IMG/VR virus record: IMGVR_UViG_3300029566_000030
DNA: 39,275 nt
Reading direction: 5' to 3' (one strand)
From: a virus
Position numbers and translations under genes: made by a program. Under the pieces are notes generated by a model, which was not told the DNA's origin, made no database searches, and saw nothing but the letters and a program-made list of their open reading frames with translations. Shown one piece after another: positions 1 to 39,275 of the stretch. Positions within the stretch are counted from its first letter, which is position 1; the number at the start of each line of letters is the position of its first letter.

Positions 1-99
1 TGAGCGGCATATTCGTTGAACCATTGCTCGGCAAAGGCTTCGAATTTGATATGCCCGGCGCAGACGCCGCCGCGGCACTCCTCCTCAAAGAGAACCATT
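1..99. repeat. Terminal direct repeat copy 1 (identical to 39177-39275); overlap of a circular contig
   Basis: Bases 1-99 (tgagcggcatattcg...agagaaccatt) recur exactly at 39177-39275. The identity stops exactly at both window edges. Confidence 0.95.
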
Positions 100-3360: not shown

Positions 3361-3622
3361 GGATTGCTCAAAAGTTTCGATTGAGCGTGGATCGGATGGC
3401 AGATTCACGGTGCTGCTGACTGGTAGCAAAGACGATATAAGGATGCTTTGGACCATGCTCAGCGTGAGTGTTTCCAAAGCGACCAAGACCCCGCTTCCTG
3501 TGCTGTGCGCAGTCTGTTCTACCGCAGGCCCAGCTATTGAAAATATGATGGGACGAAATGGCACGACCGTCGACATGAGCGTCCTTGGCAGATTCGCAAA
3601 GGGAAGGGGAGACGCCCCATGA
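3353..3622 (+). CDS. Hypothetical early protein (89 aa)
   Basis: ATG at 3353 follows GGAAGGAGG. ATGAATAA overlaps the upstream stop. Confidence 0.6.
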   Translation: MNKDCSKVSIERGSDGRFTVLLTGSKDDIRMLWTMLSVSVSKATKTPLPVLCAVCSTAGPAIENMMGRNGTTVDMSVLGRFAKGRGDAP

Positions 3623-3834
3623 TCCGCTGCGCATACTGCGACAGCGTTACGCTGGCGCTTGATCTCAATGGCGTCGATGCCCACGTCTGTCCCCTCTGCG
3701 GCGCTGTATTTGCCCGCCGGTACGGAAATACCTATTCCTTCATTGCTGATCTGAAAGGTGCTCAGGGCGTCAAGGAGCTTCTGCACTCTGTGCGACCGCA
3801 CGATCCACTGTATCGGTCAATCATCACAGCGTAG
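3619..3834 (+). CDS. Small zinc-ribbon protein (71 aa)
   Basis: CAYCDS...CPLCG motif pair. ATGA start/stop coupling with the upstream gene. Confidence 0.6.
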   Translation: MIRCAYCDSVTLALDLNGVDAHVCPLCGAVFARRYGNTYSFIADLKGAQGVKELLHSVRPHDPLYRSIITA

Positions 3835-4219
3835 GCCTTGAGAGCTTGGCCCAGATGGTCGAGTTGTCGGGCATGGACTGGCTCTATCATCTGGGCTAAG
3901 CGCCCGAGGGATAGTACCCTCCTTTCTAACAAAAAGCGGCCCCGTAAGCAGCCGCTCGCCGTCTGAGAGATGGTGCCCCAGTGCAATTCTGGCAGGGAGA
4001 CAAGCGGCAGCGCTCATGGTCGATGCATTTCTGGAAAGAAAAGGGGCGGTTCGATTCCGCCCTGCCGCATAGAGGGAGACGTTCCTGCCCTCTGCCGGGC
4101 GTGTACCCGGCACGTCCACTCTTTCACTGCCGAGTGCCGCAGCGCCGACTAACCCTCCCTGCTGCGGTGTCCGGCAGAGGGCAGAAACTCTCTATCCTGA
4201 AGGAAAGGAGGAAACGAAT
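3835..4219 (+). other. 386-nt GC-rich, hairpin-dense noncoding island between the early and recombination operons
   Basis: No credible ORF. Stems include 3849-3857/3888-3896, 3906-3910/3917-3921, 3935-3940/3951-3956, 4094-4099/4106-4111 and 4127-4143/4161-4177. A 14-bp long-range pairing joins 4085-4098 and 4171-4184. Confidence 0.6.
4004..4069 (+). ncRNA. tRNA-like minihelix: 7-bp acceptor stem and canonical T-arm, but no D-arm and a GGAA tetraloop in place of an anticodon loop
   Basis: GCGGCAG (4004-4010) pairs with CTGCCGC (4062-4068). T-arm is GGCGG-TTCGATT-CCGCC (4045-4061). TTTCT-GGAA-AGAAA forms a hairpin. Discriminator is A, with no encoded CCA. Confidence 0.5.
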
Positions 4220-4576
4220 TTGGAAGATCTCAGCAAGCGGTCAATTATTGACATGGCACGCGGTGCCATTAAGGAACGCGTGGACTACGAGATGACCAGA
4301 GTTGTCGAGAATATTCTTGATCCCAACACCTCGGCAACCGCAGCGCGCAAAATCACCATTACACTCAACCTCAAGCCAGACGATACGCGCCAGAACATTG
4401 CTGTAAGTTGTGTGGCCAAGTCCACTTTGGCTGCAACCAACCCCGTCACTACAGCTCTCTATGTCGCCGATGAGGAATCCATCGTTGAGATGGTTCCGCA
4501 GATCCCTGGGCAGTTGGCGGTTGACGCCAGCGAGCAGGAAGCTCCGCCCATGCTCAAGCTCATTCAAACCGCTTAA
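4220..4576 (+). CDS. Conserved-looking phage protein (118 aa), function unknown
   Basis: TTG start 8 nt after AAGGAGG. First gene of the recombination operon. Confidence 0.7.
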   Translation: MEDLSKRSIIDMARGAIKERVDYEMTRVVENILDPNTSATAARKITITLNLKPDDTRQNIAVSCVAKSTLAATNPVTTALYVADEESIVEMVPQIPGQLAVDASEQEAPPMLKLIQTA

Positions 4577-38138: not shown

Positions 38139-38161
38139 TTCGAGTCCTGTACCGCGCACCA
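38139..38161 (+). other. attP core candidate: 3' end of a tRNA gene (T-loop, T-stem 3' strand, acceptor 3' strand, discriminator, CCA)
   Basis: TTCGAGT-CCTGT-ACCGCGC-A-CCA. No matching 5' tRNA half lies upstream. It lies between the two arm repeats, next to int. Confidence 0.7.
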
Positions 38162-38164
38162 GAG

Positions 38165-38201
38165 AAAAACCTTGAAGCTTCAATGGCTTCAAGGTTTTTT
38201 T
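38165..38201. terminator. Bidirectional intrinsic terminator (A5-stem-loop-T7) between the attP core and int
   Basis: CCTTGAAGC (38170-38178) pairs with GCTTCAAGG (38186-38194). Flanked by AAAAA and TTTTTTT. Confidence 0.8.
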
Positions 38202-38215
38202 GTTGCCTTGAAAGG

Positions 38216-38240
38216 GCTTTTTGTTCCACGTTTGTTCCAC
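38216..38240 (+). repeat. attP arm repeat B: GCTTTTTGTTCCACGTTTGTTCCAC, overlapping the int stop codon
   Basis: Perfect 25-bp direct repeat of 37999-38023. Confidence 0.7.
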
Positions 38241-39275
38241 TATGCCTTTTTCTTTCCAAAATTGACCGGGAGCGATGCCGCGAGACCGGCACTTGCTTCC
38301 GCTTGTGCAGTCTCGAAGGCGTGGGAGTAGATGTTCAATGTGGTCGACGTCTGAGAGTGGCCAAGTGCGGCAGAGACAGTGCGCACGTCGGTGTGATTGG
38401 CGATGAGCAGCGAGGCATTGAGATGCCGAAACTGATGGATGCCGTACCACGGCAGGCCGTGACGTTCGCAAAGCTCTTTTCCCCAGTCATAGAAATCCCC
38501 AGGACGCGCCGGCGATCCGTCGAGCTTGGTAAAAAGCCGACCGCTCTCATGCCACTGATCGCCCAGCTCCAGCCGTTTCATTGCCTGCTCTGTACGTAGA
38601 GCCTTTACCATGTCGAAGATCCATGCGGGGAGCTTCAGGGAACGATGAGAGCGTGCTGTCTTTGGCGGGCCTGTGAATATCCCGTGTGCTGGATCATAGA
38701 GGGAGACGCGCTCGACTGTGACGACGTTGGTGGTGAAGTTGAAATCTCGGAATTCGAAGCCGAGCAGCTCTTCGCGGCGGTACCCGCCGAAGATCGCCAG
38801 CACAAAGAAAACCACATAGCGTAGCGGTTCACCGTCAAGTGCATCGAGGAATGCTTGTGTTTCCTCAATGGTGAAGATGTTTTTCTCCCGCTCTTGACGC
38901 TCCGGTAGTACGACACGCGGGCAAGGATTTTCTTTGACCACGCCCATTCGTAAAGCATAAGCGAAGACGCTGGAGATGAACGAGAGATAATTTCGGATAG
39001 ATTTTGGATGAAGGCCCTTAGTAGAGTCCTTTTCATTCGCCCCAGGCTCGGACAAACCGGAAATGAACTTCTGGATCTGACGCGCAGAGAGCTTGTCCAT
39101 ATAGAGATGCCCCAGCGCATGGTATACGCGCTTTGTAAGGGCACGGTAATTGCTGATCGTGCGCTTGCCGAGCTTTTGAGCGGCATATTCGTTGAACCAT
39201 TGCTCGGCAAAGGCTTCGAATTTGATATGCCCGGCGCAGACGCCGCCGCGGCACTCCTCCTCAAAGAGAACCATT
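38240..39275 (-). CDS. int: Tyrosine integrase, catalytic part (5' end continues at 248..1 across the circular junction)
   Basis: HQFRHLNASLL (HxxR) and LGHSQTSTTLNIYSH (catalytic Tyr). SAM-like core-binding region FAEQWFNEYA... The track Met at 39274 is an internal Met of the full 394-aa protein. Confidence 0.9.
   Translation of the reverse strand, partial: MVLFEEECRGGVCAGHIKFEAFAEQWFNEYAAQKLGKRTISNYRALTKRVYHALGHLYMDKLSARQIQKFISGLSEPGANEKDSTKGLHPKSIRNYLSFISSVFAYALRMGVVKENPCPRVVLPERQEREKNIFTIEETQAFLDALDGEPLRYVVFFVLAIFGGYRREELLGFEFRDFNFTTNVVTVERVSLYDPAHGIFTGPPKTARSHRSLKLPAWIFDMVKALRTEQAMKRLELGDQWHESGRLFTKLDGSPARPGDFYDWGKELCERHGLPWYGIHQFRHLNASLLIANHTDVRTVSAALGHSQTSTTLNIYSHAFETAQAEASAGLAASLPVNFGKKKA
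39177..39275. repeat. Terminal direct repeat copy 2 (identical to 1-99)
   Basis: Exact 99-nt identity to the window start. Confidence 0.95.

Follow-up and report, generated by a model that had tools for sequence, protein, structure and literature searches.

Why would a phage carry, between two of its gene blocks, an RNA element that has the acceptor end of a transfer RNA (tRNA) and no means of reading a codon? The question is raised by a 66-nucleotide (nt) element at positions 4004-4069 on the plus strand of the IMG/VR record IMGVR_UViG_3300029566_000030. All coordinates refer to the whole 39,275-nt stretch of this record, called the window, which is a circularly permuted temperate phage genome. 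An earlier note on this DNA described the element as tRNA-like yet unable to decode, and the analysis supports that description. The element is best filed among known tRNA-derived non-decoding elements, or pseudo-tRNAs. The reading that we favour, at roughly even confidence, is that this tRNA-derived, non-decoding pseudo-tRNA behaves as a t-element and that RNase P and RNase Z cut it out of the early transcript. t-elements are non-canonical cloverleaves that were found by the motif GGTTCRANYCC and that are cleaved by RNase P and RNase Z, forming mRNA ends (PMC1920247).

Structure of the tRNA-like element

The acceptor stem consists of seven Watson-Crick pairs between GCGGCAG (4004-4010) and CTGCCGC (4062-4068). 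Its third pair is G3-C70, and the alanine identity pair G3-U70 is absent. The acceptor positions are invariant in the ~30 copies of the element described below. The T-arm (4045-4061) is canonical, with GGCGG (4045-4049) and CCGCC (4057-4061) enclosing the loop TTCGATT (4050-4056). It adjoins the 3' strand of the acceptor stem with no spacer, and the 12 stacked pairs of the two stems are all Watson-Crick. The stretch GGTTCGATTCC at 4048-4058 matches the GGTTCRANYCC motif, and 37 nt separate the acceptor 5' strand from this motif. The discriminator, A4069, is followed by TAG, and no CCA is encoded. On re-reading the sequence, all that the earlier note had said of the acceptor stem, T-arm, discriminator, and missing CCA was borne out.

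In the position of the anticodon arm (4028-4041), a stem of five base pairs (bp), UUUCU/AGAAA, is capped by the GNRA tetraloop GGAA (4033-4036), and both the sequence and the minimum-free-energy fold agree with what had been claimed for this arm. The D-arm had been described as absent. This proved too strong, as a bulged D-like hairpin with a GG in its loop (4010/4012-4026, GCUC-AUGGUC-GA(U)GC, one bulge) forms in the minimum-free-energy fold. In other words, judged by the predicted structure, the D-arm is degenerate rather than absent. A single linker nucleotide, C4011, stands between the D-like arm and the acceptor stem instead of U8.

The minimum-free-energy fold of the element is a four-arm cloverleaf (-28.3 kcal/mol, z = -1.95). 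Within the 385-nt intergenic RNA, the T-stem has a pair probability of 0.99, the GNRA hairpin one of 0.70-0.98, the outer five pairs of the acceptor one of 0.63, and the D-like arm one of 0.17-0.54. The whole intergenic region (3835-4219) folds with z = -7.4. A 7-nt anticodon loop is absent from the stable fold, which has the 4-nt GGAA loop instead, and the alternative registers with a 7-nt loop (CUGGAAA and UUCUGGA) leave only three of the five stem pairs. A decoder with a quadruplet or otherwise odd loop was rejected, as an 8-nt (CUGGAAAG) or 6-nt loop requires a mismatched stem that is disfavoured against the GNRA hairpin; ARAGORN does not call such a tRNA either.

How do tRNA finders treat the element? 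ARAGORN called no tRNA by default and, in the pseudogene modes that the earlier note had proposed as a check, called nothing down to 90% (-ps and -ps90). At -ps80 it gave a poor 83-nt class-II model built on an alternative upstream strand, and in metazoan-mitochondrial mode it called 4004-4069 as a D-replacement 'mtRNA' with a mismatched anticodon stem. In Rfam, no family matched at its gathering score. The best sub-threshold match was tRNA-Sec, which scored 23.5 bits where the gathering score is 47 (E = 0.035); its alignment is limited to the acceptor, the T-arm, and the hairpin, which it treats as a variable arm. The element is not a working tRNA gene: it has the acceptor and T-arm of one, but it lacks an anticodon loop and scores too low in the finders. 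Two other identities were considered and rejected. A YrlA/Y-RNA-like RNA has no support in Rfam, and its defining features fail. A coding region fails because the open reading frames (ORFs) at 3970-4152 and 3981-4295 on the plus strand and 3817-4119 on the minus strand span a natural 1-nt indel beside 4045, which frameshifts them in many copies of the locus.

Could such a structure arise by chance? A strict minihelix motif was defined as seven Watson-Crick acceptor pairs, an abutting five-pair Watson-Crick T-stem, and a TTCRA loop. Its sole match in the window is at 4004-4068 on the plus strand. The motif occurred in 1 of 3000 composition-matched random windows generated by a first-order Markov model, and in 146 of 3000 when G-U pairs were allowed. 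The rarity of the strict motif argues that the tRNA resemblance is not accidental.

Expected processing of the element

An acceptor/T minihelix is the minimal determinant recognised by RNase P, RNase Z, and the CCA-adding enzyme. The element combines an intact coaxial acceptor/T helix of 12 bp with a canonical T-loop and with a discriminator that no CCA follows, and the tRNA-end enzymes of the host are therefore expected to treat it as a pre-tRNA. In the window allele every stem is fully paired, and only the decoding loop is swapped for a stable GNRA tetraloop. Random decay alone would not predict intact stems together with a replaced decoding loop. The element also agrees with the published definition of a t-element, in that a GGTTCRANYCC motif lies in a non-canonical cloverleaf with an acceptor stem (PMC1920247).

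The element lies in the 385-nt gap between a 71-amino-acid (aa) Zn-ribbon ORF (3619-3834, plus strand), which is the last gene of the early block and directly 5' of the insertion described below, and phrog_997 (4220-4576, plus strand), which is the first gene of the replication module. The early genes run rightward. Neither a sigma-70-like promoter nor a plus-strand terminator-like site was predicted in 3500-4500. With no predicted promoter or plus-strand terminator of its own and with plus-strand genes on both sides, the element is most simply placed within the early polycistronic RNA.

The t-element reading proposes the following course of events. A pseudo-tRNA would have entered one temperate human-gut phage lineage within a ~245-nt non-coding insertion, and it would probably be transcribed as part of the rightward early RNA. 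RNase P would cut this RNA at 4003/4004 and RNase Z would cut it after 4069, and CCA would then be added, giving the processed RNA a 3' end that reads CTGCCGCA plus CCA. Such cleavage would separate the early message from that of the replication genes at a point 14 nt before a conserved leader RNA, and it would release a stable RNA of ~66-69 nt.

What could a phage gain from such processing? One proposal is that a tRNA has been domesticated as non-decoding 'punctuation', whose excision would break the link between the early genes and the replication operon and leave a monophosphorylated 5' end 14 nt before the leader. This proposal is speculative, and we consider it rather unlikely. A further product of such an element might be a stable, CCA-tailed mimic of tRNA that has its own function. 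Punctuation by tRNAs is well documented in organelles and for true tRNAs within bacterial operons. If the proposal is true, organellar tRNA punctuation and t-elements would have a counterpart in a bacterial virus. If the element is processed, it would clearly exemplify, in a phage, the punctuation of a polycistronic mRNA by a tRNA-like structure; a literature search found no report of punctuation by a non-decoding element in a phage. The prophage is present in very many human-gut assemblies, so that public metatranscriptomes could test the processing directly.

A lineage-specific insertion

The element belongs to a lineage-specific non-coding insertion of ~245 nt on the plus strand, referred to here as the island. 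The island starts at 3835, right after the stop codon of the Zn-ribbon ORF, and ends at the leader, at about 4078-4083. Near-identical copies (~30) were found in six IMG/VR contigs, thirteen metagenome contigs, and ten long ENA contigs, the last of which were retrieved by means of the exact 71-aa neighbour protein. All of the ENA contigs come from human-gut samples, and all are prophages adjoining a DUF1846 gene. The exact neighbour protein occurs in 3799 blocks of the assembly index, indicating that the prophage is very common.

Related phages suggest that the island was gained in one lineage. The closest sister lineage (L009-L012 and L078), with 80% identity upstream and 90% identity downstream, has ~6 nt (AAAGAC) between the stop codon and the leader and no island. 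As the sister is without the whole ~245 nt, the tRNA-like element is part of this insertion. Distant relatives have the leader and not the insertion, which makes a gain in one lineage the parsimonious explanation. The earlier note had named absence from close relatives, or lack of conservation among them, as an outcome that would speak against its claim. This was half observed: L009-L012 and L078 are without the insertion, but throughout its own clade the element is kept at 96-99% identity.

Identity among the copies of the island is 96-99%, but the sequences on either side diverge by 8-17% on average, with maxima of 28-59%. Ordinary mosaic recombination, with breakpoints near 3811 and 4102, accounts for such a block of identity between divergent flanks. 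Upstream of the ~30 copies there are three or more alleles, and the replication modules that accompany them are of two unrelated types. For example, L004 and L102 combine an L009-type upstream allele with a window-type island and downstream region. In L001, L098, L106, L114, L117, and L118, a window-type upstream region and island are joined to a PolA-type replication module that consists of DUF2800/PDDEXK, an Enc34-like single-stranded DNA-binding protein, and a family-A DNA polymerase. This joint lies near 4102 inside the leader, and the 5' arm of the leader appears to act as a recombination joint between modules.

Is the island mobile by itself? Autonomous mobility was rejected, as the contigs with other upstream alleles or with the other module are simple recombinants. 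Patterns run against IMG/VR found no parts of the island in other contexts; they occur only in the same contigs. A direct repeat, 'GGGAGAC' (3995-4001 and 4073-4079), was considered as a target-site duplication and rejected, as it is not conserved among the copies. The fold of 3835-4219 also contains, at the start of the island, a long imperfect hairpin of ~30 bp (3836-3909, plus strand). A match of this hairpin to a miRNA model was judged spurious.

Origin and relationship to known elements

A GCGGCAG/CTGCCGC acceptor together with this T-loop exists in real phage tRNAs, namely Gly-UCC and Ile. In one phage tRNA (L091), the 3' end is the same as that of the element except for one compensated pair. 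Gly-UCC makes up five of the eight real or putative phage tRNAs that were fetched for matching acceptor strands and T-loop. A gapped acceptor/T-loop pattern in IMG/VR returned true tRNAs (Gly-UCC and Ile) and no evident parent of the element. An exact search of 185,579 species genomes with a 21-nt T-arm/acceptor query (GGTTCGATTCCGCCCTGCCGC) returned no tRNA and two non-tRNA chance matches. Clear derivation from a host tRNA, which the earlier note had said would count against its claim, was thus not found in the species-genome searches.

In the search for diverged homologues, the IMG/VR patterns and a metagenome scan with D-loop and T-loop returned only near-identical copies, and such exact-match scans could miss diverged ones. 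A T-loop regular expression combined with ARAGORN revealed no diverged homologue at 84 loci. Likewise, when the alleles were used to build a covariance model, its hits in 90 sources were near-identical copies only, and it found nothing in 76 related loci.

Which known elements does this one resemble? It is similar to the t-elements of plant mitochondria in being a non-canonical, non-decoding cloverleaf that would lie within a longer transcript and is an expected substrate of RNase P and RNase Z (Forner et al. 2007, PMC1920247). It differs from them in that it resides in a phage and not in an organelle and is a single lineage-specific copy, not a member of a dispersed family (PMC1920247). Like phage tRNA pseudogenes, it has tRNA ancestry in the acceptor, the T-arm, and part of the D-arm, lies in intergenic DNA between modules, and scores below threshold. 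Unlike typical tRNA pseudogenes, which show scattered stem mismatches or truncation, its main allele has stems without mismatch and a clean GNRA replacement, and no parent tRNA was identified.

Temperate phages that integrate into a tRNA gene carry a tRNA-like piece at the att site, and in this respect the element is comparable to such fragments (PMC9897764). However, att-site fragments hold only the 3' part of the target tRNA, as an exact match, whereas the element has both acceptor strands (PMC9897764). An attP/attB fragment was rejected, as the element is ~5 kb around the circular genome from the integrase and attP and is unrelated in sequence to the tRNA-Val core.

Other phages make small structured RNAs that do not decode and are cut from phage transcripts by tRNA-processing enzymes, such as the RNase P-matured regulatory C4 RNAs of P1/P7 and CI RNA of P4, and the stable 'species 1/2' RNAs of T4. 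These RNAs have tRNA-like ends as the element does, but they are without the canonical T-loop. Furthermore, the T4 species sit inside a tRNA gene cluster and the element does not. A C4/CI-type antisense RNA was rejected, since 3700-4400 has no C4 match in Rfam at E <= 10 and there is no target complementarity beyond chance. The tRNA-like domain of transfer-messenger RNA (tmRNA) is similar in having an acceptor and a T-arm, no anticodon, and a short helix in place of the anticodon arm, and the 5' segment of the element (AUGGUCGAUG) loosely recalls the tmRNA motif GGAUUCGAC. A tmRNA domain was nevertheless rejected: the element has no G3-U70, no mRNA-like domain, and no pseudoknots, it is only 66 nt long, and ARAGORN calls no tmRNA.

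Alternative explanations

Is the element put to use, or is it left over? The alternative that survives best is an inert relic. A tRNA gene or region would have been acquired by illegitimate recombination and crippled by small indels, it would have no effect on expression, and the near-identity of its copies would reflect the youth of the clade. We accord this explanation a lesser, though still substantial, probability.

Several observations weigh against the t-element reading, and it is convenient to set them out next to the relic. The element and the island are absent from the sister lineage and from all leader-bearing distant relatives, and the element is therefore dispensable. A relic would accord with this occurrence in a narrow clade only. 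The element has variable columns at 5 of 66 nt and the rest of the island at 16 of 169 nt, indicating no extra constraint on the element. Such a density of variation, equal to that of neighbouring non-coding DNA, is also consistent with a relic, as is the failure of tRNA finders to recognise the element.

The kinds of variation point in the same direction. Natural variants of the T-arm are an extra A or G beside 4045, G4059A, and C4061T, and in one copy (L118) G4025A creates a C.A mismatch in the D-like stem. Three of the four stem substitutions give an A.C mismatch (at 4025, at 4059, and, under one reading, at 4045), and the fourth gives a G.U pair (at 4061). Of the 28 aligned copies, 10 have an allele whose T-stem contains an additional A (GGGAGCGG); the T-arm of this allele has a predicted probability of only 0.09. 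Uncompensated stem mismatches and a common allele that is predicted to destabilise the T-arm both favour a relic. Real tRNAs often fold contrary to thermodynamic predictions. The fold of the element has no covariation support because no diverged homologue was found, and the clade data give no positive evidence for maintenance of a tRNA-like fold. In addition, the C at position 8, the single linker nucleotide, and the bulged D-stem may weaken an L-shape.

Other observations fit an inert relic less well. In the main allele all four stems are paired and the anticodon loop is neatly swapped for a GNRA tetraloop. Several separate changes from a tRNA would have been required to reach this state, none of them stem-breaking. 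Four of the five variants in the element are singletons, but 11 of the 16 elsewhere in the island are shared between copies. This excess of singletons hints at weak purifying selection, but it is non-significant. Even a relic, if transcribed, should be cleaved by RNase P and RNase Z as long as its minihelix is intact. The earlier note had listed a decayed tRNA gene and a processing signal as separate roles; both are still viable, and they are not mutually exclusive. If the element is a relic only, it serves as a reminder that phage intergenic DNA can retain perfect acceptor/T minihelices that are not tRNA genes.

Another explanation is that the element acts in trans. The excised, CCA-tailed RNA of 66-69 nt would be a mimic of tRNA and serve as a decoy or cofactor for a tRNA-binding factor of the host or the phage, the proposed targets being a defence nuclease, the CCA-adding enzyme, a modification enzyme, or an aminoacyl-transferase. 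In favour of such a role, the element has an intact minihelix and T-loop, the prophage that carries it is very common, as judged from its neighbour protein, the first acceptor pairs (G1-C72, C2-G71, G3-C70) resemble those of tRNA-Gly, and Gly-UCC predominates among the fetched phage tRNAs. However, an RNA without an anticodon loop cannot bait anticodon nucleases or rescue translation. The discriminator is A and not the U73 of bacterial tRNA-Gly, and alanyl-tRNA synthetase would find no G3-U70. No tRNA-related enzyme was found among 20 ORFs compared with Pfam, which lie in the early region up to 8.3 kb and at 11.1-18.3 kb. Complementary words elsewhere in the genome are no longer than 11 nt, a length at which 0.5 matches are expected by chance. 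The sister phages do without the element, and a frequent allele is predicted to weaken its T-arm. The decoy or mimic role suggested in the earlier note is therefore unsupported, and we judge it improbable.

A further explanation takes the minus strand as the functional one. The complement of the T-arm forms a terminator-like hairpin (4062-4044, minus strand) followed by the T-rich tail CTTTTCTTTC, and a second such hairpin (3957-3934, minus strand; GAGCGGC...GCCGCTT, then TTTGTT) lies inside the island. These tandem terminators would halt antisense transcription from the replication/leader region, and the tRNA likeness would reflect ancestry. Two sites were called on this strand against 0.7 +/- 0.8 expected in shuffles. 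In the island-less L009, a minus-strand T-run (GTCTTTTTAT) directly follows the leader hairpin, suggesting that a minus-strand stop signal may be a conserved need at this place. On the other hand, no minus-strand promoter-like site was predicted in 3500-4500, and all credible gene calls from 4220 to the integrase at 38240 are on the plus strand. The perfect acceptor stem, the plus-strand T-loop, and the GG of the D-like loop would also be left unexplained. The prospect that these hairpins are the functional feature is slim. As a separate observation, the presence of the minus-strand terminator-like pair may point to an antisense transcript from the leader/replication region.

Finally, chance resemblance within an ordinary cluster of GC-rich hairpins is hardly credible: the abundance of CTGCCG/CGGCAG words (78 in the window against 35.6 expected, five of them in 4005-4177) and the isolated fold z of only -1.95 would allow it, but the strict motif in 1 of 3000 random windows, the exact GGTTCGATTCC T-loop, the 7+5 stacking without a spacer, the discriminator, and the GG-containing D-like loop all argue otherwise.

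The neighbouring leader RNA

A conserved structured leader (4084-4188, plus strand) starts 14 nt after the discriminator and is separate from the tRNA-like element. Its outer stem of 15-18 bp (CCTGCCCTCTGCCGG / CCGGCAGAGGGCAG) encloses two variable hairpins. The leader ends ~20-30 nt before a ribosome-binding site (RBS), and in the window it ends ~20 nt before the RBS of the gene at 4220-4576. It is also found upstream of the first replication gene in L009-L035, L078, L001, and L114-L123; the replication modules that it precedes are of two unrelated kinds, and its outer stem recurs in many divergent relatives. In 6 of 14 sequences, a U-A pair of this stem is replaced by A-U, its one compensatory change, and several of its G-U pairs fit only plus-strand RNA or plus-strand single-stranded DNA. 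No Rfam family matched the leader. The leader may be a cis-regulatory RNA not described before, or else an origin/priming hairpin, and it is probably the more general regulatory feature of this phage group, whatever the fate of the tRNA-like element. By eye, the 3' strand of the acceptor could pair with the 3' arm of the leader over ~8-9 bp at most.

Genome context

The ends of the window (1-99 and 39177-39275) repeat each other over 99 nt. This terminal repeat indicates a circular assembly of a ~39.2-kb phage genome that was opened inside the integrase gene. The integrase ORF accordingly spans the window ends on the minus strand (38240-39274, continuing into 1-255). A CI-like repressor is encoded at 420-1490, also on the minus strand. 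In the replication module, phrog_997 is followed by phrog_1029, an AAA ATPase, a DUF3799 exonuclease, an SSB, and a primase.

The attP core (~38150-38175, TTCGAGTCCTGTACCGCGCACCA) equals the 3' end of the host tRNA-Val(GAC). The earlier claim that the tRNA-like element is unrelated in sequence to this tRNA fragment at attP held true. In the prophage contigs, the phage lies between tRNA-Val (L004 14165-14238) and the DUF1846 gene, and the prophage flanks encode DUF1846, PfkB, and sigma-54 proteins. The host tRNA-Val gene encodes its CCA, unlike the tRNA-like element.

Two minor observations concern short words. An 11-nt word, TGGAAAGAAAA, occurs in the element (4031-4042, plus strand) and on the minus strand at 38240-38260, near the integrase stop and the attP arm. 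About 0.5 such matches are expected by chance, and the sharing is probably a coincidence. The hexamer CTGCCG/CGGCAG, whose expected number in the window has a spread of +/- 5.8 in dinucleotide shuffles, has its five clustered copies in the acceptor stem, the leader stem, and one inner site. The excess of this hexamer possibly reflects codon usage, a recognition site, or iteron-like repeats.

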